Below are positions 3,057 through 14,579 of a stretch of DNA of 64,000 nucleotides, in pieces. Below the pieces are notes generated by a model. That model was given only the letters and a program-made list of their open reading frames with translations, made no database searches and was not told the origin of the DNA. The stretch is from Spirochaetia bacterium (GTDB lineage Bacteria > Spirochaetota > Spirochaetia > UBA9216), in assembly GCA_963675665.1 (NCBI GenBank), contig OY776510.1:1984001-2048000 (forward strand), read 5' to 3'. Numbering within the stretch: position 1 is the stretch's first letter; every line of letters begins with the position of its first letter. A program made the translations under genes and the position numbers.

Positions 3057-4066
3057 TGAAGTCTAATCTTTCCGGGATATTTAACCGGGCCAGAAAAAGT
3101 GAAATCCTGAATAACAGGTTTGTTCCCGGACTGAAGGCGTATAGCCAGTCAAGGATACTGATCCTGCTGACAATAATTGCGGCGATGGTTGTATGTCTTT
3201 CAATAATAAATCCCCGGTTTCTGTCGTATTATAATTTCAGCGCGATTACCGGCAATGATTCCATGAAGGGGCTTGTTCTTATAGGTATGACCCTGATCCT
3301 GATAACCGGAAACTTCGACGTCTCCGTCGGTTCCAATATCGCGCTGGTCGGAATTGTCACGGCATGGATGATGCAGGCCGGTTTGTCTCCATTGGCCGCG
3401 TCGATGCTGGGTATTGCATCCGGTATGCTTATAGGCCTGTTCAACGGGCTGATGGTAACCAGGCTGAAGATCCATTCCTTTATTGCGACCCTCGGCTCGC
3501 TGTATATGGCCAGGAGCCTTGCGCAGGTTATCACCCAGGGGACTCCCATCGGGAAATTTCCGCAGTCGTTTATCGAATTCGGAGATCTGTATATTTTCAA
3601 AATACCCTTTGTGCTGATTATTCTTGTTGTTTCGGTAATAGCGGCAAACTATCTTCTTCAGCACAGCCGGCTTCTCAGATCGGCGGTTTATATCGGCACC
3701 AACAAAAGAGGGGCTGATTATATCGGCCTGAGGACAGACGCCATCCAGCTTGCAATATTTGTTCTGGTCGGTTTGCTTGTCGGTATCGCCGGTGTTTTCC
3801 TTACTGCAAAGATGCGTTCCGGCCTTCCGACAGCCTTTACCGGGCTTGAGTTTAAAATGATAGCTGCAGCGGTGCTGGGGGGCGCCTCGCTTAACGGCGG
3901 GCAGGGGAATATGCTGGGTTCGATAATGGGACTGATTGTGCTGATTCTTATCAGTAACGCAATGACTATTCTGGGCATTTCGGTGTATATGGACGGGGTA
4001 ATAATGGGAATTGTCCTGATCGGGGCGTCTGTTCTCGACAGCGTTTCGCAGAAAAACGTAATATAA
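3056..4066 (+). CDS. Sugar ABC permease (RbsC family)
   Basis: Hydrophobic; GNFDVSVGS and IAAAVLGGASLNGGQG motifs; ATG overlaps the ATPase stop. Confidence 0.92.
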   Translation: MKSNLSGIFNRARKSEILNNRFVPGLKAYSQSRILILLTIIAAMVVCLSIINPRFLSYYNFSAITGNDSMKGLVLIGMTLILITGNFDVSVGSNIALVGIVTAWMMQAGLSPLAASMLGIASGMLIGLFNGLMVTRLKIHSFIATLGSLYMARSLAQVITQGTPIGKFPQSFIEFGDLYIFKIPFVLIILVVSVIAANYLLQHSRLLRSAVYIGTNKRGADYIGLRTDAIQLAIFVLVGLLVGIAGVFLTAKMRSGLPTAFTGLEFKMIAAAVLGGASLNGGQGNMLGSIMGLIVLILISNAMTILGISVYMDGVIMGIVLIGASVLDSVSQKNVI

Positions 4067-4165
4067 AAATACTTCCATGTATTTTTATATTTTGAAGTTT
4101 GTAAAGGAATCAGCAAAGCGGATTTTTTACAAACTTCATCTCACAAGCCTGCCGTCCATGGCAGG
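4060..4165. repeat. Composite REP-like element of three hairpins
   Basis: AATATAAAAATAC-TTCCAT-GTATTTTTATATT; TGAAGTTTGTAAAGGAATC..GATTTTTTACAAACTTCA; CCTGCC-GTCCAT-GGCAGG. The outer hairpins share an NTCCAT loop. Confidence 0.65.
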
Positions 4166-4185
4166 AATTTTTTACAGGGGATAGT

Positions 4186-5268
4186 ATGGCAATATTATTT
4201 GGAAAAGAATACTCGAGGATGCAGCTGCTGGAAAGAGTGGGCGACATAACACAGCTGTGTCATGCAAACCGGTGCCGGCTTGCCGGCGGCAAACGCGAAG
4301 GCGTGGAGTCTGTTTTTTTCAATAATTCATCGGGTTTGAATTTCTCGGTAATTCCCGGCAGGGGCATGGATTTCGGGCCCTTTATCTATAAGGGTATGTC
4401 TCTGTCATGGCGGTCTGCTGCAGGCGAGGCCGCCCCGGCTTTTTTCGAACCGCAGGGGGCCGGTATGGACCGGAATTACCACGGCGGGCTGATGCATATA
4501 AGCGGGATAAGCTATGCGGGCCTTCCGTGCGAGGATGAAGGAGAATCACTCGGCCTGCACGGCAGAATATCTAACACCCCTGCCGACGAGGTTTACACCG
4601 AAGGATGCTGGATTGGAGACGATTATGAGCTCAGACTTAAAGGCAGGGTCCGCGAGGCGACGGCCACCGGGAAACGGCTGGAGCTGACGCGTACCGTAAG
4701 CGTCCGCCTTGGAGAACCCGCTGTTTATCTGGATGATGTTGTTGAAAATATCGGAATGGAACCGGCGGAACACATGCTGCTTTACCATACTAATTTCGGC
4801 TTCCCGCTGCTGGATGATGGAACGGAGTTTATTATCCCGTCGACCCGGGTTGTTCCTTTTAATGATTTTTCCGCAGCCAAAACCGGAGACTGTTTTACTT
4901 TCCCCGGCCCGGATTCTGAAACGCCCGGAGAATTGTTTTATCATGAACTGTCCGGTGACAACGATGGTAATACCGGCTACGCAGTAATAAACAGGGATAT
5001 TAATAACGGTAAAGGCCTCTGCTTTTCGATTGAGTTCAACCGAAACGTTCTGAACAGGTTTGTCGAATGGAAATACAGCCGCAGGGGATATTACGCGGCC
5101 GAACTCGGACCGTCAAACTGTCACGTGGCGGGAAGGGCAAAAGAGCGGGCCGACGGCACGCTGAAATTCCTTGGCCCCGGAGAAAAAGTAAACTACAGGC
5201 TTAAAATCAGGGTATCAGAAGGAACCGGTATTGCGGCAGTTGAAGATAAAATCCGTAGGTTAACTTAA
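4186..5268 (+). CDS. DUF4432 / aldose 1-epimerase-like (galactose mutarotase fold) protein
   Basis: RGMD, LHGRISNTPA, HMLLYHTNFGFPLLD and ELGPSN motifs. Confidence 0.8.
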   Translation: MAILFGKEYSRMQLLERVGDITQLCHANRCRLAGGKREGVESVFFNNSSGLNFSVIPGRGMDFGPFIYKGMSLSWRSAAGEAAPAFFEPQGAGMDRNYHGGLMHISGISYAGLPCEDEGESLGLHGRISNTPADEVYTEGCWIGDDYELRLKGRVREATATGKRLELTRTVSVRLGEPAVYLDDVVENIGMEPAEHMLLYHTNFGFPLLDDGTEFIIPSTRVVPFNDFSAAKTGDCFTFPGPDSETPGELFYHELSGDNDGNTGYAVINRDINNGKGLCFSIEFNRNVLNRFVEWKYSRRGYYAAELGPSNCHVAGRAKERADGTLKFLGPGEKVNYRLKIRVSEGTGIAAVEDKIRRLT

Positions 5269-5428
5269 AATATTTAGTTGTATGCTGAGTTATTCATAAA
5301 CCAGGCATTATAAGTTTTTAGCGAGTGCTTCTGTAAAAGCTGCTTTTAAGAATAGTTAAATTCAGATGATAATTATTAATTCCTCTGTTCTTTTTGTAGT
5401 AGAATTATTATCGTCACAGAGATTATTT

Positions 5429-6019
5429 TTAATTTGAAATATCATCCAAATAAAGTTGGATAAGATAATTTCCTTTTTCAACAAGATTGAATCTTGTGTC
5501 TTTCAGATACCAGTTAAATAAAACGCCTCTCATTATCATCATAATGTTTTCTACAATTTCATTTGAAGCAAGGACGCTTCTGAAATCATTATTGCTTATT
5601 GCAGCGTCGACCAGTTCATATAGTATCCTGAAGATCCCGCGTTTTTCGTCCAAAATAAATTTCTTATGATAAGGCAGATCCAGCTGGGATTTATAAAGAT
5701 ATTTTGCATTCAGGATTGTTATATCATTGTCCGTACTCCTGTAATATATTTCCAATACGAAATTCAGGAAGTTCTTCAAACGCTGAAGCGGCGGCAGATT
5801 GTCCGGCAGAGACAAGATGAACTCATCAAATTCAATATCATGCTCATCAAGAATATATCCAAGTAATTCCTTCTTTGCTTCAAAATAATGATAGAAGGTT
5901 CCTTTGGATACTCCTGAGTCTTCAATAATCTGATTAACTGTTACGTTTTCATAACCTAGTTTTATAAAAAGCTTGTTTGCAGTAGAAATTATTTTATCTT
6001 TTTTAGTTTTTGTTTTCAT
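5429..6019 (-). CDS. TetR/AcrR family transcriptional regulator
   Basis: LFIKLGYENVTVNQIIEDSGVSKGTFYHYF HTH; divergent from the GntP operon. Confidence 0.93.
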   Translation of the reverse strand: MKTKTKKDKIISTANKLFIKLGYENVTVNQIIEDSGVSKGTFYHYFEAKKELLGYILDEHDIEFDEFILSLPDNLPPLQRLKNFLNFVLEIYYRSTDNDITILNAKYLYKSQLDLPYHKKFILDEKRGIFRILYELVDAAISNNDFRSVLASNEIVENIMMIMRGVLFNWYLKDTRFNLVEKGNYLIQLYLDDISN

Positions 6020-6158
6020 AGTAATAAAACCTCATTAAAGCAGTTTGACCATATTATTAGAAAATACAACTAATCACCGGGGAAAGCAATAATTTATATT
6101 ATTACAATAAATAATAATCAACCCTGAAAACGAACCCTGAAAACAGAAATTTAAAATA

Positions 6159-6200
6159 TTGACAGATGATGAATCTAATGGTAAAGTAGACCACGGTCTA
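6159..6200 (+). promoter_or_regulatory. Sigma70-like promoter with overlapping palindromic operator (probable TetR site)
   Basis: TTGACA(6159)-17 nt-TAAAGT(6182); palindrome TAGACC-AC-GGTCTA at 6187-6200. Confidence 0.6.
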
Positions 6201-6263
6201 GAACGCGTTCTATTTTTTATTAACCGCCTTACATGGCAGGAATTCTTTTATAGGAGAAACAAT

Positions 6264-7544
6264 ATGGGATTTGTGGGAATTTTTATAGGTTTTGGAATTC
6301 TATTACTTGGCGTCTGGAAAAAATATAATCTTATACTCGTTACACTTTTAACAACCTTAGTAATAGGATTGACAAACGGAATGGGTGTAATGGAAGTCTG
6401 GCAGGGTCCGTTCATCCAGGGGTTTACCGGTTTCGCTGCACCTTTTATGCTTCTTTTTTGTTTCGGGGCTTTGTTTGGAAAGCTTATGGAAAAGAGCGGA
6501 GCGACAGAGAAGATTGGACTAAGCATGCTGGGGATTTTCGGTGAAAAATTTACAATCTTTGCTTATATGCTGGCAACTGCCTTATTGACATACGGCGGAG
6601 TGAGCGGTTTTGTTATTGTTTTTGTTATGCTTCCTCTGGCGAAAGTCCTGTTTAATAAGGGAAAAATACCCTGGTACCTTTTTCCTGCAGTTACCTATGC
6701 GGCAATGCTGCCGGCAATTGGTATAATGCCCGGGAGCCTTCAGATTCAGAATATGATACCTACGAAATATTTGGGAACAACATTAACATCCGCCCCTGTG
6801 CTGGGAATAATATTATCTTTGATTTATCTTGCAATGATCTTGCCTTATCTGTGGTGGAGAGTTAAGAAAGGCAGAAAAGATCAGTCTTCGATGGATTATG
6901 CTGTTACTGCAAACGGCAAGGCTTTAGAGCTGACTGATGATAAGAATCTGCCGGGATTTATTATTTCGATAATACCGATTGTCATTGCTCTGGTTTCTAT
7001 AAATATAATAAAAATTAATATTGTATATGGTTTAATCCTTGCCTGTATATCCTGTATTGTTTTATTTTGGAAGAGGTATGAAAATCTTCTGGATGCTCTT
7101 AATTCAGGAATCAGCAATGGAATAATGCCTACTGTATTAGTTGGTGTTGTTGTTGGTGTAGCGAAGGTTGTTGCTTCAACATCTGCCTTTTCACTTTTTA
7201 AAACCTGGCTGCTTGAGATTCCAGTCAGCGGTTTTATGAAGTTATTTGTAGTGACTAATTCTGTAGCATTCATTACTGGTTCAGGAACAGGGGCAATATC
7301 TACAACACTTGAGATCTTTGCAAAGCATTTTATTGATTTAGGTTTAAATCCGGGTATTATCCATAAGATTGTTATAATGTCCGCCTGCGGTTTTGATTCA
7401 ATGCCGTGGAACAGCTTTATAGTATTATTAATTGCCATGTCGGGTGTCAGTTACAAAACAAGTTATAAATATATCTTTATGACAACCGTTGTTTTTACAC
7501 TTGTTACCGGTTTAATCGGTGTACTGATGGCAAGTCTGATCTAA
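6264..7544 (+). CDS. GntP-family organic acid permease
   Basis: Polytopic; GALFGKLMEKSGA, LLTYGGVSGFV, PGSLQIQNMIP, FDSMPWNS; RBS AGGAG before ATG 6264. Confidence 0.85.
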   Translation: MGFVGIFIGFGILLLGVWKKYNLILVTLLTTLVIGLTNGMGVMEVWQGPFIQGFTGFAAPFMLLFCFGALFGKLMEKSGATEKIGLSMLGIFGEKFTIFAYMLATALLTYGGVSGFVIVFVMLPLAKVLFNKGKIPWYLFPAVTYAAMLPAIGIMPGSLQIQNMIPTKYLGTTLTSAPVLGIILSLIYLAMILPYLWWRVKKGRKDQSSMDYAVTANGKALELTDDKNLPGFIISIIPIVIALVSINIIKINIVYGLILACISCIVLFWKRYENLLDALNSGISNGIMPTVLVGVVVGVAKVVASTSAFSLFKTWLLEIPVSGFMKLFVVTNSVAFITGSGTGAISTTLEIFAKHFIDLGLNPGIIHKIVIMSACGFDSMPWNSFIVLLIAMSGVSYKTSYKYIFMTTVVFTLVTGLIGVLMASLI

Positions 7545-7557
7545 AAGGAGTTATCGA

Positions 7558-8169
7558 ATGAGTCAATTTATAATAGACAAGATAAAGAGATGCAAAGGTT
7601 TCTTCGAGGTTGATTATGGAACAGATAAAGCTGAAGAGATTGTAAACAGGGCCCTGGAGATATTTGAAATTGAAAAAGTGAAGATGCCTTTGCTTAAGAG
7701 CAAAAGTAATCAGGGTTTTATGGCATTCATGGATTTCATGGTTTTCATTTATAAAGCTTTACTGGAAAAAGAAGAAAAAGAAAAAGCCCTGGAACTTTGT
7801 AAGGATTGTATTAATTATTCAATCGATATTGATTTTCTGGATGAAAACATGAAAAAGGCATGGAAGGATCATGATTTAATTCGTGCTAAACGAAAGCAGA
7901 TAATAGATGATGTAAATCAGGCAGATGAAAAATTCGGCTGGATTTATAAAAACGCAAAGTATGATGAAGGCATACTGTATAGTTTCGATATCACCCGCTG
8001 CGGAATGTATGACTTATGTCGATTGTTTGAAGTTGAAGAATTAATGCCGTCAATTTGTCAGGCTGATTTCTATATGGTGAAATTTCTTCCTGACGGATGT
8101 GTCTTTCACAGAAATGCCACTCTTGCTGATGGCGCTGACTGCTGTGATTTTCTTTATACCTATGAATAA
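7558..8169 (+). CDS. L-2-amino-thiazoline-4-carboxylate (ATC) hydrolase family protein
   Basis: C-terminal FDITRC..YD..C..D...R.ATLADGADCCDF pattern typical of the ATC_hydrolase family. Confidence 0.75.
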   Translation: MSQFIIDKIKRCKGFFEVDYGTDKAEEIVNRALEIFEIEKVKMPLLKSKSNQGFMAFMDFMVFIYKALLEKEEKEKALELCKDCINYSIDIDFLDENMKKAWKDHDLIRAKRKQIIDDVNQADEKFGWIYKNAKYDEGILYSFDITRCGMYDLCRLFEVEELMPSICQADFYMVKFLPDGCVFHRNATLADGADCCDFLYTYE

Positions 8170-8285
8170 AATTTACTGAATATAAAAATAATATACTGAA
8201 AATGCCCGGAGATGCGGGAATACCTCTCCGGGTAAGTTAAGACAAACAAGATAACAACAGCCCAATACGCGAAAAGGAGAATTAG

Positions 8286-9875
8286 ATGTGTGATCTGCTG
8301 CTTAAGAATGCAAAGATTCTCACGGGAAATCTGGAGCCTGTATATTCCGGAGACATAGGAATTAAAAACGGCAATATTGATAAACTGGGAAAAGTAACCC
8401 CCGGTGAGAATACAAGAATTATTAATTGTGAGAACAAATATGTGTCTCCGGGGTTTATAGACAGTCATGCTCATGAGGATCTTGTATACGGTGATAAACT
8501 GCCGGAACTGGGCAAAATATCCCAGGGAATAACAACAGTATTCACAGGAATGTGCGGTTTAAGTTTATACCCGACAAACAAGAAAACGTCACAGGAACTC
8601 CGAAGCAGAATCCTGTCATTCGGCAAGGACGTGCCTATGGAAAATTTAAACCGGAATTATTCTTATAAAAGCTACATAGAGCAGCTTGGAAAAGGAAAAT
8701 CAAGAATTAACTATAAAATGCTTATCGGACATGGGACACTCAGGACTGCTGTAATGGGAGAGAGTAACCGGGCTCCGTCTTCGGTTGAGATGGAGGCTAT
8801 GAAGAAGCTGCTGCGTGAAGCCATGGAAGAAGGGGTTCCGGGGCTGTCAGCCGGTTTGGTTTATCCTCCGGGAAGTTTTTCCACTGAGGCTGAAATAACT
8901 GAATTATTGAAGGTTGTTGCTGAATACAACGGTTTTTATTCTGTTCATTTAAGAAATGAATCGGACGGTGTTGTAGAAGCAGTAGAAGAAGCGATAAGAT
9001 CTGCCGGAAATGCGGAGGTTCCGCTTTGGATATCTCACCATAAGATTGCAGGAATGCAGAATTGGAAAAAATCAGATGAAACCCTTAAGATAATAAAGGA
9101 AAATATTGAGAAGGGGATGAAGATTACTCTAGATATTTATCCGTATGAAGCAGCATCAACACTGCTTACGGTTGTTCTTCCCCCTGAATTTCTGAATGAG
9201 GGGACACCTGCTGCCGTTGCAAAACTGAAAGATAAAAATCAAAGGGCAATTGTAAAAGAGGAAATTATTAACCCCTCATATGTCTGGGATAATTTTTATA
9301 AAAATTGCGGGGGCTTTTCCGGGATATTTATAATTGATTCTCCTTATAACGAGGAGGCGAAGAATATGACAATAGCTGATTATGCTGAAAAGACAGGAAA
9401 AGATGAATTTGAAACCTTCTTTGATTTATTAGTAGAGAATGAAGGGAATGTAATGGCCGTATATTTTATGATGAATGAATATGATATTAAAAAAGTGCTT
9501 ACTTTTCCCGAGACAGTAATAGGTTCCGACGGGGCAAGTTTTAATCCTGCTTCATCAGCGCATCCGAGAGGATATGGTACCTTCCCTAAAGTGATAAGAA
9601 AGTATGTATTGGATGAGCAATTATTTTCCTTAAATGAAGCAGTTTATAAAATGACAGGATTACCTGCAAAAAAATTAAACCTTGATAAAAAAGGATTAAT
9701 TAAGACCGGCTGCGATGCTGATCTGGTTGTTTTTGATTTAGCCGAATTGAAAGATAATGCAACGTATGAGAATCCGTATGAGTTAAGCGACGGTATCGAG
9801 TACGTTATAGTTGACGGAAAAATTGCATACAGGAACAAAGAGCTTACGGATGTTTTTGCAGGAAAACTTATCTGA
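8286..9875 (+). CDS. N-acyl-D-amino-acid deacylase (D-aminoacylase)
   Basis: PGFIDSHAH, GMCGLS, HLRNE, ISHHK, IGSDG, HPRGYGTFP, KMTGLPA. Confidence 0.9.
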   Translation: MCDLLLKNAKILTGNLEPVYSGDIGIKNGNIDKLGKVTPGENTRIINCENKYVSPGFIDSHAHEDLVYGDKLPELGKISQGITTVFTGMCGLSLYPTNKKTSQELRSRILSFGKDVPMENLNRNYSYKSYIEQLGKGKSRINYKMLIGHGTLRTAVMGESNRAPSSVEMEAMKKLLREAMEEGVPGLSAGLVYPPGSFSTEAEITELLKVVAEYNGFYSVHLRNESDGVVEAVEEAIRSAGNAEVPLWISHHKIAGMQNWKKSDETLKIIKENIEKGMKITLDIYPYEAASTLLTVVLPPEFLNEGTPAAVAKLKDKNQRAIVKEEIINPSYVWDNFYKNCGGFSGIFIIDSPYNEEAKNMTIADYAEKTGKDEFETFFDLLVENEGNVMAVYFMMNEYDIKKVLTFPETVIGSDGASFNPASSAHPRGYGTFPKVIRKYVLDEQLFSLNEAVYKMTGLPAKKLNLDKKGLIKTGCDADLVVFDLAELKDNATYENPYELSDGIEYVIVDGKIAYRNKELTDVFAGKLI

Positions 9876-9907
9876 AGCGGCTGTTATGAAAGGAGATTCT
9901 GATCTTA

Positions 9908-10978
9908 ATGAAGAAAGATGAAGTAAAAAGATTTAATCTGGGATTGGAAAAGACGCCCATCCAGCGGCTTGAAAATGTAAACCGGGATTTAGGCGTAAAC
10001 CTGTACATTAAAAGAGACGATCTGAACGGCCTGGGAGCCGGCGGAAACAAGCTCAGAAAGCTGAATTATCTTGCCAAAGATGCTGTTCAAAGCGGCTGCA
10101 ATGTATTACTGACTTTCGGCGGCGTGCAGACAAACCACGGCAGAATGACGGCTGCGGTTGCTGCCAGGCTGGGTCTTAAAAGCTGTATAATTTTAAACGG
10201 CCCTCCCCCTGAAAAAGCTACCGGCAACCTTATTTTAGACAAAATGTTGAATTCAGAATTGGTATTTATGGATAATTCAGAATTTAAGAATGCTCCGGAT
10301 GCAGAAGAAAAAATGAATGTCCTTCGTGAAAAAACACTGAAGTCAGTAATAAAAAGCTATGAAGAAAATGGCGACAAGGTATATATAATTCCTCTCGGCG
10401 GCAGTAATCCGTTAGGCGCATTAGGTTATGTTGATGCTGTTGATGAAATTGAAACGCAGCTGTCTGAAATGCATTTAGACCTTGATTATATGATAACCGC
10501 TTATGGTTCCATCGGTACATACGCGGGGCTTATTGTCGGAAGCAGGATGAGGAACCATAATTATAAATTGATAGGTATGAATGTGCTGCATGATTTTATC
10601 AGCCATCCGGAACTGCTAAATGAACATCTGGATTATATCAACGATATCAGCCGTATGTATGATTTAGGCGTAACCATAACGTCTGAGGATCTGTGGATAG
10701 AAAAAGAAACAATACGCAGCGGTTATAATATTCCTGATCCGCTAACCCAGGAGAGGGTGATGTATCTTGCAGCCCGGGAAGCAATTTTTCTCGACTACTG
10801 TTACACAGGCAAAGCCTTCAGCGGGCTGGTTGATCTGGTTAATCAGAAAAAAATCCCGCGGGGTTCAAATATTCTGTTCATGCATACCGGGGGGCTTCCG
10901 GGGATATTCTCTGATATTCACGAAGACGCCATGCAGGAAAAACTTTGGTCGGGTAATCAGAAAGTTTTTACGCTATAA
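9908..10978 (+). CDS. D-cysteine desulfhydrase family PLP enzyme
   Basis: KRDDL..GGNKLRKL, QTNHGR, YTGKA and HTGG (D-Cys desulfhydrase type, not the YEGKS/HLGG of ACC deaminase). Confidence 0.85.
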   Translation: MKKDEVKRFNLGLEKTPIQRLENVNRDLGVNLYIKRDDLNGLGAGGNKLRKLNYLAKDAVQSGCNVLLTFGGVQTNHGRMTAAVAARLGLKSCIILNGPPPEKATGNLILDKMLNSELVFMDNSEFKNAPDAEEKMNVLREKTLKSVIKSYEENGDKVYIIPLGGSNPLGALGYVDAVDEIETQLSEMHLDLDYMITAYGSIGTYAGLIVGSRMRNHNYKLIGMNVLHDFISHPELLNEHLDYINDISRMYDLGVTITSEDLWIEKETIRSGYNIPDPLTQERVMYLAAREAIFLDYCYTGKAFSGLVDLVNQKKIPRGSNILFMHTGGLPGIFSDIHEDAMQEKLWSGNQKVFTL

Positions 10979-10995
10979 ACAAAGGAGTCAATATT

Positions 10996-11379
10996 ATGGG
11001 TAAAAAAATTATTAATACAGAAAATGCGCCGAAAGCAATCGGGCCATATTCCCAGGCAGTCATTTCAGGCAATTTAATTTTTATTTCCGGACAACTTCCA
11101 ATAAACCCTGATTCTAATGAAATGGCGGAAGCCGACTACGCAGAACAGACAAAGCAGTGTATGAAAAATATTATCGGGATTCTGAGAGAACAAAAATTGG
11201 GTGTCGGGAATATATTAAAAACTACAATCTTTATGAAAGACTTATCTGCTTTTCAGAAAGTAAACGAAGCATATGCAGGGTTTTTTGATAAAGATTTTCC
11301 AGGACGGGCATGTGTAGAAATCAGCAGACTTCCTAAAGATGCATTGGTTGAAATCGAGGCCGTCGCAGCGATTTTCTAG
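10996..11379 (+). CDS. ridA: RidA reactive enamine/imine deaminase
   Basis: APKAIGPYSQA, SGQLP, FPGRACV, LPKDALVEIEA. Confidence 0.92.
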   Translation: MGKKIINTENAPKAIGPYSQAVISGNLIFISGQLPINPDSNEMAEADYAEQTKQCMKNIIGILREQKLGVGNILKTTIFMKDLSAFQKVNEAYAGFFDKDFPGRACVEISRLPKDALVEIEAVAAIF

Positions 11380-11445
11380 AGTATGAATGTTTTTTATGTT
11401 GCCTGATTTATATAGTTTCAGGCAGCATTATTCGAAATGATAGGC

Positions 11446-12657
11446 TTACAACCGGGTGAAACCGCCGATATACCTCTTTAAAAAAGGCACATCCTTATTT
11501 ATTCCCGGGCCGTAAAGCTTGAAGATTATGAGCTCCTCTTTTCCTTCATTCCTGATGACTAATTCGCTTGCCGCTTTTTCATGCACTACAAGAAGCTCAT
11601 CGTTTCCGACGTCTTTTCCTGTGAATGGAACTCCGTCGATACTGCCGCTTCCTTTCCAGACAAAAAAGGTGTATATGCCTTTGTCCCTTGATTTGTATGT
11701 TTTTCCGGGGTATACGGTCAGTTTTTTTGCGCTGAATTTATGCGTGTTGTAACTAATCCATTCTTCAAAACCGCCGGTTTGGACGCTGCCCTGAATTTTT
11801 ATCGGAGTAAGGTGACGGTTCTCGTAAAAGTAGGGGTCTCCGTTAAGTTCCCAGTCGGCAAGATCAAGCGCCGAGGCTTCATGTTTTGAATTCCAGCGAT
11901 CATCCGGAATGTCTTTATGAAGCAATGATTTATCAATCCTGATATCTCCTATTTTGGCCTGGAGAACCGAAAAAACGTCCGAAGGTTCCTGCAACTCAAG
12001 CGTCAGCGCGGTGCCCGGAGCATGCAGTCCCCCCGCGGGAAGATGAAACCCCTCTCCCGGAACATTCATGTACGCCTTTGAGTGTTTCAGTATTAAATCG
12101 CTGTTCCAGTCCTCGAGATACGGCAGCAGGGTTTCATACTGAATATTCTGCTCTACAAGGCAGGGGTGGACCCCGAAAAAGGTTTCCGGATACGTCCCAG
12201 TCGGAGCGTCCTCCAGAAAATAGTATGTTTCTTCCTTGGGTTTCTTGCCGACGAGGGCGGCGTCCTTCTCCATCAGGTGGATATGGTAGTAAAGCCTGCA
12301 TTTAAAGTCGAAAACCTTCGCAAGAAGCCCTATGCAGTTTGTTTTTTCTGCGCGTTCCTTTCCCAGAAACATTTCTCCGGAGAGGTTAACGGCCTCTTTG
12401 AGGGTTATATTTTCTCCGTCGATGTCCAGATACGACAGCCCCTCGTCGGGAGGGCCAAGCGGCGTGTCGGCTGTTGTTTCCGAAGCAAGACAGCGCGCAA
12501 TAATTTCGCCCCGTTCTCCCTTGTTGTACTCCTCTTCCGGCAGGCCCAGTCTGCGTCCCGACGGAAGCCCTTTTCTGGCTATAAATGCGGGTCTTAACCG
12601 CAGAATTCCGTTCTGATTTTCTATAAACTTTTCAACTGTTTCTCGCCTCTTGATCAT
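11446..12657 (-). CDS. Type I phosphomannose-isomerase-like cupin (sugar isomerase, substrate unknown)
   Basis: HIH..KPKEETYYF and GGLHAPG..LELQEPSDV metal-binding cupin motifs. Confidence 0.6.
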   Translation of the reverse strand: MIKRRETVEKFIENQNGILRLRPAFIARKGLPSGRRLGLPEEEYNKGERGEIIARCLASETTADTPLGPPDEGLSYLDIDGENITLKEAVNLSGEMFLGKERAEKTNCIGLLAKVFDFKCRLYYHIHLMEKDAALVGKKPKEETYYFLEDAPTGTYPETFFGVHPCLVEQNIQYETLLPYLEDWNSDLILKHSKAYMNVPGEGFHLPAGGLHAPGTALTLELQEPSDVFSVLQAKIGDIRIDKSLLHKDIPDDRWNSKHEASALDLADWELNGDPYFYENRHLTPIKIQGSVQTGGFEEWISYNTHKFSAKKLTVYPGKTYKSRDKGIYTFFVWKGSGSIDGVPFTGKDVGNDELLVVHEKAASELVIRNEGKEELIIFKLYGPGINKDVPFLKRYIGGFTRL

Positions 12658-12692
12658 TTGTGCATTGTACACGATGTACAATTAGCTGTCAA
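12658..12692 (-). promoter_or_regulatory. Promoter of cupin gene (probably leaderless) overlapped by TTGT(G/A)CA repeats
   Basis: Minus strand TTGACA(12692-12687)-17 nt-TACAAT(12669-12664)-6 nt-ATG(12657); no SD. Confidence 0.65.
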
Positions 12693-12797
12693 ACGGATGT
12701 TAAAAAAATTGCCGGGTATTCTTTTGCGTGATATAATATGTAAACCTTAAAACATCAGCGGGGGTCACAAATTAAAGCTAATTCGTTTCAGGGCTCA

Positions 12798-14579
12798 TTG
12801 CGTACCAGGCTTCTTGTCACTTTGATTCTCATATCAGTGCTTCCTTCCAGCTTTATTGGGGTAGTGGCGTTCAAGATATCTTCTAAAGTTTTAAATGATA
12901 TGGCTATCGAATCCAGTACTGAATTAATAGACAGGATCGGCGGTGAACTGGACAGCCTTTTTTTTGAAGCCTATAAACTGTCGGTAATTATATCGGACAA
13001 TCTCAAGATTCAGACAGTACTAAGGAAGGACTTTGCCGACAATTCAGAGAAGTATGCAATTGATCTTGAGGCAAGTACCGAGCTTTATTTTATCAAGGAT
13101 TATAAAAAGGAAATCTTTGGTCTTTATGTAATAGGCGAAAACGGAGGACGATACCGTTCAAATTTCTATACTTTCAAGGAAGTTAATTTTCAGACCAAAC
13201 GCTGGTATCAGGATATTATAGAGTCGGATTCCCCGGTCTGGACCGGTCCGAATAAAGGTTCAAAAGTTGTTGTTACAACCGGCGATGAGGTGTTTGAACT
13301 GGGCATTCCGATCATTGACAAGGCTTCAGGCAACAAAATGGGGATTGTTCTGTCTGAAATTACGGAAAAGAAGATTCGGAGTATAATAAATGCCAGGCTC
13401 GGTAAAACCGGTTTTATTGTTGTTCTTAATGAAGACAATGAAATAATATCAGGAAAAGAGAACGCTGAAGACCTGACGGAATTGGAGCTAAGTTCTTTTC
13501 AGAAGATTAAAGCGGCAAGCTATGAGGAGCTTGATACCGTAATAAGGGGTGTCGGCACTTTTTTAAATGATTCGGCTGTCGATGTGATAAGCGATTTGCC
13601 GCTTGTAATTGTAAAATCATTTCCTATCAATGGCTGGAAGGTTGTAGGCTTTATTCCCAGAGAAGAATTAACTAAAAACTCCAAACGAATAGGAATCATA
13701 GTAGCAATACTGATTCTGCTTTTATCAGTACTCTCGGTTCTGCTTTCATGGTATTTTTCGGGGCAGATAGTAAAACCTATCAGATCGCTTATAGGACTCA
13801 TGGGCCGGGTTGAAGACGGAGATCTTGATGTTAATATGAAACTGACCCGCGATGATGAAATAGGCCATCTCGGCAACAGTTTTAACATGATGATAAAAAG
13901 AATAAAAGCGCTGATGCAGCAGATATACGATGAGCATAAAAAGCTTGAAAAGGCCAAGTATAAAACCTTGCAGGCGCAGATAAATCCTCATTTCCTGTAT
14001 AATACTCTTGATTCGGTAATATGGCTGGCAAGGGCCCGGTCATATAACAAGATTGTTACAATGACTACAGCGCTGACTAAGTTTTTCAGAATAGGTTTAA
14101 GCCGGGGAAAGGATCTGATTACAATACAGGAAGAATTTGCCCATGTTGAAAATTACCTGATTATTCAGAGTATCAGGTATGAAGACAAATTTAATTACAG
14201 TATAGATTACGATGAAGATATTGCGCAGCTTAAGATTATCAAGATTGTGCTTCAACCCCTTGTCGAGAACGCAATATATCATGGCGTTAAAATGAAGCGG
14301 GGGGGTGGTGAAATCAGGATCTCCGGAAAAAGAACGGGTGATGACGTCCGAATCGTGATTACCGACACCGGTGCAGGTATGTCGTCTGAACAGTTGAATG
14401 CTCTTAACAACACGCTGAACAGAACAGGCAGTGATAAACTTGACAGTTACGGCGTAATTAATGTAAATGAGCGTATCAGAATCTTTTTCGGTGACAAATA
14501 CGGGTTGACATATAAGAGTATTGCAGGAGAAGGAACGGAAGTTACAATGAACATTCCGGCTGTGACAGATTATGAATGA
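12798..14579 (+). CDS. YesM/LytS-type sensor histidine kinase (Cache, HAMP)
   Basis: Two TM segments; DEIGHL HAMP; QAQINPHFLYNTL; LQPLVENAIYHG; DTGAGM. Confidence 0.93.
   Translation: MRTRLLVTLILISVLPSSFIGVVAFKISSKVLNDMAIESSTELIDRIGGELDSLFFEAYKLSVIISDNLKIQTVLRKDFADNSEKYAIDLEASTELYFIKDYKKEIFGLYVIGENGGRYRSNFYTFKEVNFQTKRWYQDIIESDSPVWTGPNKGSKVVVTTGDEVFELGIPIIDKASGNKMGIVLSEITEKKIRSIINARLGKTGFIVVLNEDNEIISGKENAEDLTELELSSFQKIKAASYEELDTVIRGVGTFLNDSAVDVISDLPLVIVKSFPINGWKVVGFIPREELTKNSKRIGIIVAILILLLSVLSVLLSWYFSGQIVKPIRSLIGLMGRVEDGDLDVNMKLTRDDEIGHLGNSFNMMIKRIKALMQQIYDEHKKLEKAKYKTLQAQINPHFLYNTLDSVIWLARARSYNKIVTMTTALTKFFRIGLSRGKDLITIQEEFAHVENYLIIQSIRYEDKFNYSIDYDEDIAQLKIIKIVLQPLVENAIYHGVKMKRGGGEIRISGKRTGDDVRIVITDTGAGMSSEQLNALNNTLNRTGSDKLDSYGVINVNERIRIFFGDKYGLTYKSIAGEGTEVTMNIPAVTDYE

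Follow-up and report, generated by a model that had tools for sequence, protein, structure and literature searches.

A TetR-linked gene block of a Spirochaetia bacterium as a candidate operon for the catabolism of a masked D-amino acid, possibly a D-cysteine derivative

What is the substrate of a block of six genes in which a PF14196 (ATC_hydrolase) protein stands between a permease and three enzymes of amino-acid breakdown? The block lies at positions 5429 to 11379 of a 64,000-nucleotide (nt) stretch of Spirochaetia bacterium contig OY776510.1 (assembly GCA_963675665.1, positions 1,984,001 to 2,048,000), here called the window. The initial annotation had read it as a pathway for the uptake and degradation of a thiazoline or an N-acyl-D-cysteine. 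All six open reading frames (ORFs) were found where that annotation had placed them, and the gene families it had named, a TetR divergent from a permease that is followed by four further genes, were all confirmed by profile and PDB searches. The six genes are as follows.

5429-6019, minus strand: TetR-family regulator, divergent from the operon (PF00440 TetR_N, 52.4 bits against 24)
6265-7544, plus strand: permease of the ion-transporter superfamily, a distant GntP/CitMHS relative (PF02447, PF03600)
7558-8169, plus strand: PF14196 protein of the long form, 203 amino acids (aa), proposed ring-opening step (PF14196, 57.2 bits)
8286-9875, plus strand: amidohydrolase of the N-acyl-D-amino-acid deacylase (D-aminoacylase) family (PDB 1m7j, E 3.2e-82)
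9908-10978, plus strand: fold-type II pyridoxal phosphate (PLP) beta-eliminating lyase of the D-cysteine desulfhydrase/CuyA/1-aminocyclopropane-1-carboxylate (ACC) deaminase family (TIGR01275, 7ysk)
10996-11379, plus strand: RidA enamine/imine deaminase (TIGR00004, 161.6 bits against a curated cut-off of 106.25; PF01042, 135.9 bits)

The five genes on the plus strand are separated by gaps of 13, 116, 32 and 17 nt, which would fit a single transcript, and the order of permease, PF14196 protein, deacylase, beta-eliminating lyase and RidA is chemically sensible. The operon is proposed to be horizontally acquired, to be repressed by the TetR protein and to catabolise a masked D-amino acid with a beta-leaving group, for which a D-cysteine derivative would be the likeliest candidate, for example a 2-substituted thiazoline-4-carboxylate or a ring-opened N-acyl-D-cysteine. 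A carboxylate would be imported by the GntP-like permease, its heterocycle would be opened by the PF14196 protein to an N-acyl or N-carbamoyl D-amino acid, and the acyl group would be removed by the D-aminoacylase-type metallohydrolase. The DcyD-family PLP lyase would then eliminate the beta-substituent, as H2S if the amino acid is cysteine, and the resulting 2-aminoacrylate would be hydrolysed by RidA to pyruvate and ammonia. In response to the ligand or an intermediate, the TetR protein would leave the twin palindromes that overlap the promoter. The handedness of the substrate appears to be implied twice, by the D-aminoacylase family of the deacylase and by the DcyD/CuyA family of the lyase.

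The generic part of this scheme, in which an N-acyl-D-amino acid becomes a D-amino acid and then a 2-oxo acid and ammonia, is very probably right, and is well supported because of the family memberships and the published analogy of the ong cluster. The full chain, which adds D-cysteine and the opening of a thiazoline-type ring, is put forward tentatively, the balance tipping slightly against it. It is supported by the one activity cited for the PF14196 family, by the pairing of PF14196 with three kinds of deacylase and by its recurrence next to cysteine-type lyases, most notably in a second cluster of the same genome (L092); it is weakened by the divergence of the window copy, by a ligand-binding fold and by the variety of contexts and fusions in the family. 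The families, the gene order and the D-handedness of the pathway first proposed are supported, whereas the scores leave more than one amino acid possible and only sub-modules of the gene set were found again.

The permease exceeds the cut-off of PF02447 GntP_permease (59.2 bits against 22.5) and matches PF03600 with 44.4 bits. Its score for the gluconate:H+ symporter model TIGR00791 (39.7) is far below the cut-off of 292.75, and of the GntP models only the broad Pfam one is passed. The protein is a distant GntP relative, with uptake of a carboxylate as its proposed role. The amidohydrolase is better resolved. After the Alcaligenes faecalis D-aminoacylase 1m7j of the list, its PDB matches are the N-acyl-D-Glu deacylase 3gip (5.3e-72) and OngB, 9kb1 (4.8e-69). 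The metal-binding and catalytic set SHAHED, GMCG, VHLRNE, SHHK and GSDG aligns with that of the A. faecalis enzyme (AfDam, 1m7j), and the HxH pair, the Cys/His/His metal ligands and the catalytic Asp of a subtype V amidohydrolase are all present. The motifs YPP, SHHK, YPY and HPR are also aligned and conserved and correspond to the Tyr/Lys/Tyr/Arg set by which the acetamido and carboxylate groups are bound, according to the residue roles described for AfDam and OngB (PMC12017989). The HMMER alignment to 1m7j breaks at residue 295, ahead of an insertion of about 45 residues, and so gives no counterpart for the determinant of the side-chain pocket (AfDam Leu298, BbDam Arg295, OngB Gln298).

The match to OngB raises the question of whether the substrate could be an N-acetylated acid of an amino sugar, for example GlcNAc1A, and the route ong-like, from import by a gluconate-type permease through an OngB-like deacetylase and a PLP deaminase to RidA. 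The ong cluster for oxidised chitin (PMC9537276, PMC12017989) likewise has a D-aminoacylase-fold deacetylase (OngB), a PLP deaminating lyase (OngC), a RidA protein (OngD), a transporter and a repressor, and this shared logic, together with the GntP-like character of the window permease, favours such a route. So do two positions of the deacylase cavity, an Ala at AfDam Met254/OngB Ala256 and a Val at AfDam Phe191/OngB Ala193. However, that Ala is the only match among the four OngB cavity positions that were aligned, Val standing for Ala193, Thr for Ser292 and Met for Gly348, and D-aminoacylases outscore OngB. OngC is a fold-type III enzyme, whereas the window lyase is of the DcyD/ACC-deaminase family; a 2-keto-3-deoxygluconate kinase and aldolase are absent from the operon; and PF14196, which the ong cluster lacks, would have no role in that pathway. 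An ong-like function is improbable, and the degradation of a D-amino acid derivative is the preferred reading.

The lyase shares its family, the PLP-Lys motif and the YTGK motif with DcyD and CuyA, although its scores fall below the curated cut-offs for both. The general D-cysteine desulfhydrase family model TIGR01275 gives 268.7 bits (cut-off 289.4), the CuyA equivalog NF052482 gives 266.7 (cut-off 450) and the DcyD equivalogs give 192 to 203.5 against cut-offs of 429 to 610. Its PDB matches include the D-cysteine desulfhydrase 7ysk (E 5.4e-54) and, with 4d8t, span 1e-52 to 5e-54. GGNK, QTNH and YTGK are invariant in an alignment of 14 members of its clade, with GGNK48, which holds the PLP Lys, and Y299-T300-G-K aligned to 7ysk and 1j0a; DcyD has QSNH in the place of QTNH. 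The Tyr-Thr pair is the signature of D-cysteine desulfhydrases, as against the Tyr-Glu of ACC deaminase. Two more specific identities were rejected, ACC deaminase on the scores and this signature, and CuyA on its score. The clade members are about 50% identical to the window lyase; the few that are named come from Bacillota, and the clade is common in metagenomes. A 43% homologue in a genome of the same genus (L168; G004:C43:1-13500, 3825-11143) lies in a different operon, the order of which is a YheO-like regulator, the lyase, an aminotransferase-AhpC/TSA redoxin fusion, a flavodoxin/ferredoxin-like protein, an amino-acid permease, RidA and a redoxin-GNAT fusion.

The ring-opening step depends on the PF14196 protein, which had been named as an ATC (2-aminothiazoline-4-carboxylate) hydrolase family member from the sequence alone. 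A profile search bears this out, with 57.2 bits against a cut-off of 28.1 and residues 59-200 covering model positions 7-145. C148, C167, D170 and C196 are invariant across an alignment of 64 relatives, the three cysteines forming a cluster of the V4R type to which D170 is added. In a passage of Galperin et al. (2018; PMC5847659), PF14196 is tied to HNOB and V4R by sequence, the three-cysteine cluster is described as common to it and V4R domains, and thiazoline ring cleavage is the only activity cited for the family. The AlphaFold2 model of the window protein has a mean predicted local distance difference test score (pLDDT) of 97.1 and resembles H-NOX domains (Foldseek E 1.9e-4, TM 0.46-0.49; VIA Z 6.6, root mean square deviation 4.7 over 158 residues), while Bet3 and the PoxR/MopR phenol sensors score below H-NOX. 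These fold scores are middling, yet they are in line with the published tie of PF14196 to HNOB and V4R and with the cluster of three cysteines that they have in common. The modelled fold suggests a small-molecule pocket and a probable metal site. A structural metal site at the Cys3-Asp residues is plausible from the fold match together with a comparison with MopR.

Relatives of this protein are few. A PDB sequence search gave no credible match, the best being a cytochrome at E 0.0036; a word-indexed search of 5.8 billion clusters gave two relatives only, of 65% and 60% identity; and HMMER over 1.84 billion representatives gave 116 matches at E up to 0.001. Across the family, PF14196 is found fused to a methyltransferase (P0081), to DUF6064 (L134), to a transglutaminase-like core (L093) and to membrane domains, and it occurs in tandem in two proteins (P0060, L155). 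The transglutaminase-like fusion is a 378-aa protein (L093:7547-8683, plus strand) encoded directly behind a TetR gene (6810-7451).

Seven PF14196 matches were found in the host genome, six exceeding the family cut-off, and one of the seven lies in a cluster that resembles the window operon (L092; G000:C1:2215000-2231500, locus coordinates 6626-12402). There, a gene for a 434-aa regulator-like protein and the genes for a PF14196 protein, an M20D amidohydrolase, an SDH_alpha-family protein and BenE follow each other on one strand with small gaps or overlap; a SorC-type regulator gene is directly upstream. This PF14196 protein, of 163 aa, is the top-scoring copy of the genome (109 bits). The M20D amidohydrolase reaches 238.3 against the TIGR01891 cut-off of 153.75, and the SDH_alpha protein has a full-length match to the solved L-cysteine desulfidase 9he0 (E 7.1e-29) and also matches 'putative L-cysteine desulfidase' clusters, with an atlas score of 0.99. 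The three-step logic is the same as that of the window, PF14196 protein, deacylase and cysteine-type lyase, with a carboxylate transporter added, whereas the PF14196 protein is of the short form, RidA is absent and the neighbours are regulator-like rather than TetR. As judged from these families, L092 appears to be an L-handed counterpart of the window operon that uses an unrelated enzyme family at each step, and it gives independent support for the gene order of the window. The two PF14196 copies have only a 57-residue core in common, at 33% identity, and are therefore not the result of a recent duplication.

A third arrangement comes from a scan of 185,579 species with a pattern from a six-sequence PF14196 alignment. 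In an unrelated genome (L009), a TetR gene is divergent from a PF14196 gene (31% identity to the window copy), which is followed by AlaE and then by a third kind of amidohydrolase, whose score for NF051886 (253.9 bits) stays below the cut-off of 500. The window, L092 and L009 pair PF14196 with three different amidohydrolase types. A further cluster of the host genome (L094; G000:C1:3795000-3814900, about 6665-12873) contains a URO-D-like gene, an FGGY kinase, two PF14196 genes, a shikimate-kinase-like gene, RidA, an L-cysteine-desulfidase-like gene, another PF14196 gene and an IspH-like gene. A branched-chain-type ABC transporter lies alongside, and the cluster is seen again in at least three further class genomes (L148, L149, L152).

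The lyase was also followed into metagenomes, through the best 80 of 576 stretches encoding its relatives, many of which span only a few kb. The lyase and a D-aminoacylase-like gene are adjacent in 3 of the 80 (L019, L021, L022), RidA is present but non-adjacent in 11, and none has a TetR or GntP-like gene. In those three loci, one on a contig from a gut metagenome, an NhaC-like transporter is divergent from a CuyA/DcyD-like lyase, which is followed by a D-aminoacylase-like amidohydrolase and a PAS/sigma-54 activator; the module is a PF14196-free relative of the window operon. Elsewhere, a 55% homologue of the amidohydrolase and a 64% homologue of the lyase each appear on one contig only, with a length of 9136 nt in both cases, and the two are probably adjacent in a closer relative.

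The existence of a lyase and D-aminoacylase pair without PF14196 is what would be expected if the operon degraded a simple N-acyl-D-amino acid (N-acetyl-D-serine or N-acetyl-D-cysteine, N-acyl-D-cysteate, or a beta-halo-D-alanine), with PF14196 as a small-molecule-binding accessory or another kind of enzyme. For the L021 lyase, CuyA is the best-scoring model (251.6, the general family reaching 215.8), and the H-NOX and V4R sensor-like fold of PF14196 and the mixed contexts and fusions of its family point the same way. The GntP family, moreover, includes a D-serine transporter. On the other hand, the PF14196 gene is inside the operon, 13 nt behind the permease gene, it is found with three types of deacylase, and ring cleavage is the one activity that PMC5847659 cites for the family. 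This explanation is possible, if unlikely, and the opening of a heterocycle is retained as the tentative role of the PF14196 protein.

Several observations weigh against a conserved pathway for thiazolines and D-cysteine. The lyase is under every curated cut-off, so that D-cysteine, D-serine and D-cysteate are all possible substrates, and it scores nearly equally for CuyA and for the general family. The window PF14196 protein is a divergent long form with at most 33% identity to proteins outside a three-member clade. Its H-NOX/V4R-like ligand-binding fold, as modelled, and the mixed contexts and fusions of the family make a non-hydrolase role possible; with that fold and such very mixed contexts, thiazoline hydrolysis is a function taken from the family name. 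The full set of six genes was not found elsewhere, either in 40 relatives or in the 80 metagenome lyase loci. Among 41 genomes, an orthologue of this PF14196 gene turned up in 1, the host genome itself. The scan of 185,579 species gave three PF14196 loci, at 30-34% identity, and two of these (L010, L011) have unrelated neighbours. No close relative of the PF14196 protein came out of a metagenome scan, and none of the 80 lyase loci, short as many of them are, has a PF14196 gene by phmmer or a 64-sequence HMM. Conservation of the gene association had been set beforehand as the test that could refute the pathway, and the outcome is divided: sub-modules recur, but the six-gene set was not found in another genome.

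The survey of the class adds to both sides. PF14196 is carried by 35 of 201 class genomes, and 37 loci from genomes other than the host were compared, two same-genus duplicates of G043 being left out. An L-cysteine-desulfidase-like neighbour is found at 5 of the 37 (L139, L148, L149, L152, L156), a shikimate-kinase-like neighbour at 8, and MetY and MetA homologues at one (L125). This last locus (G086:C6:94400-108800, 4585-7431) has the best PF14196 match of the class (134 bits), directly behind the O-acetylhomoserine sulfhydrylase and homoserine O-acyltransferase homologues, and its gene content suggests a further tie of PF14196 to sulfur amino-acid metabolism. The remaining PF14196 genes are lone or lie by TetR/MarR regulators, exporters or unrelated genes. 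Also to be counted with the contrary points, none of the 37 loci has a D-aminoacylase-, DcyD- or M20D-like gene, and the copies linked to desulfidases are short forms (160-170 aa), the window copy being a long form. The main caveat is that the nearest class relatives of the window copy are without metabolic neighbours, being mostly lone or placed by TetR/MarR regulators, exporters or unrelated genes. Outside the class, a 30% relative is found on two Clostridium plasmids, next to a Tn3 transposase, a context that is uninformative about the pathway.

One of these plasmids, pCF005-B of Clostridium estertheticum (L175, 75499-76137), has a lone long-form PF14196 gene beside the Tn3 transposase and a recombinase. 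In a proteomics table for Clostridium difficile (PMC13435710), the PF14196 protein CD02900 is up 11-fold in a MATE-pump mutant, alongside a bacitracin/multidrug-type ABC permease. The plasmid context and the rise of CD02900 hint at a detoxification role for some PF14196 members. The window block could be a detoxification or resistance island, not a nutritional pathway, and its target an antibiotic or xenobiotic that contains a thiazoline or a D-amino acid. TetR control, the low content of guanine plus cytosine (GC) and the company kept by long-form relatives, TetR/MarR regulators and MatE, ABC and MFS transporters as well as the plasmid transposase, are in keeping with this. The importer-type permease and the complete route to pyruvate, including RidA, are however typical of catabolism, and the block has no efflux pump, so a resistance function is a rather remote prospect and catabolism is preferred.

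Among the closest known systems is the Pseudomonas pathway from L-ATC to L-cysteine (ATC hydrolase AtcB, and AtcC), in which a PF14196-family protein is likewise followed by a cysteine-freeing amidohydrolase. Catalysis by the PF14196 family, the hydrolysis of ATC to N-carbamoyl-cysteine, is not known from work other than that on the Pseudomonas ATC hydrolase. AtcC, an N-carbamoyl-L-cysteine amidohydrolase, is an M20 enzyme, whereas the window deacylase is a D-aminoacylase of the amidohydrolase superfamily, and the window product would be further degraded by a D-type lyase and RidA. Among the 116 HMMER matches, none outside its small clade is more than 33% identical to the window PF14196 protein. 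The individual steps are already covered by the known L-ATC pathway and by DcyD/RidA chemistry; no paper that combines an ATC hydrolase, or a D-aminoacylase, with a D-cysteine desulfhydrase was found in the library searched, where a single paper was found to treat PF14196 as a family.

A wider reading joins the two clusters of the host genome into stereo-complementary routes for 2-substituted thiazoline-4-carboxylates in one anaerobe-type genome, with PF14196 proteins as metal-dependent heterocycle hydrolases on an H-NOX/V4R fold. The D route would consist of PF14196, D-aminoacylase, DcyD-type lyase and RidA, and the L route of PF14196, M20D aminoacylase and Fe-S L-cysteine desulfidase; such carboxylates could arise when thiazoline siderophores or peptides are degraded, or could be the adduct of cyanide and cystine. 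This reading is speculative and on balance doubtful. PF14196 is a widespread family, as the class survey illustrates, yet almost unstudied, and the D- and L-handed operons of a single genome are a cheap biochemical test pair for its function. If true, the proposed pathway would be the first D-specific one for thiazoline catabolism and would give the PF14196 family a general function. It would also provide an anaerobe with a route for recovering carbon, nitrogen and sulfide from D-cysteine-containing heterocycles, and would assign a substrate class to the uncharacterised DcyD-like lyase clade.

Block 5269-11445 is the lowest-GC 6.2-kb stretch of the window, so the AT-richer region described earlier is real, though the difference is modest (GC 0.377 against 0.432 elsewhere in the window). 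GC at third codon positions is 0.34-0.44 for the block genes and 0.53-0.58 for the immediate flanking genes, and the TetR gene itself has a GC of 0.325. In a DNA comparison with five same-genus genomes, the flanking 411-aa gene alone gave matches, which were short (up to 667 nt, 65-66% identity), and the island borders therefore cannot be mapped by synteny. If chance or a recent assembly had brought the six genes together, with no single pathway, this would agree with the occurrence of the set in one genome only. The tight spacing on one strand, the common low GC, the single promoter and operator region and the recurrence of sub-modules elsewhere argue otherwise, and a chance association is very improbable.

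The remaining features of the locus lie in the control region, within the operon and at its end.

6120-6145, no strand assigned: tandem 13-nt direct repeat (AACCCTGAAAAC G/A, twice; perfect but for one position), read from the sequence
6159-6187, plus strand: sigma-70-like promoter TTGACA-17-(TG)TAAAGT, with 10/12 consensus matches and an extended -10 TG
6187-6212, no strand assigned: two abutting 14-nt palindromes, candidate TetR operator over -10/+1, from a palindrome search
8203-8234, plus strand: GC-rich 10-bp hairpin without a U-tract, from folding, within the 116-nt gap between the PF14196 and amidohydrolase genes
11400-11424, no strand assigned: inverted repeat TGCCTGA ... TCAGGCA, possible terminator, between the convergent RidA and 411-aa genes

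The palindromic operator-like site reported at 6187-6200 (TAGACCACGGTCTA) is present, and a second, perfect palindrome (TAGAACGCGTTCTA) adjoins it at 6199-6212. The pair begins at the final base of the -10 element of the promoter-like site. The two are the sole matches to TAGA-N6-TCTA within the window; 21 of 100 shuffles gave at least two matches, so that their number by itself lacks significance, and it is the adjacency that stands out. A promoter scan of the region found 24 sites where 22.2 were expected, and 6159-6187 is therefore a consensus match only. The permease gene had been listed with a TTG start at 6159; its family stands, but this start falls within the promoter, its TTG being that of the -35 hexamer, and the true start is probably the ATG at 6265, which is preceded by AGGAG. 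The direct repeat lies between the divergent genes, ends 14 nt before the -35 hexamer and is possibly another site for a regulator. No equivalog model reaches its cut-off for the TetR protein.

Downstream, the inverted repeat at 11400-11424 was not called in a terminator scan. The 411-aa ORF (11446-12681, minus strand), convergent on the operon, has no Pfam family, and its only match is a sub-threshold one to mannose-6-phosphate isomerase (TIGR00218, 16.1 bits). An Rfam scan of 5000-13000 gave no match at E up to 0.1. The hairpin, within the one wide gap between operon genes, has a folding energy of -19.4 kcal/mol (z -1.8), with 10 of 200 shuffles folding equally well, and may be a processing or stability element or may cause partial attenuation.

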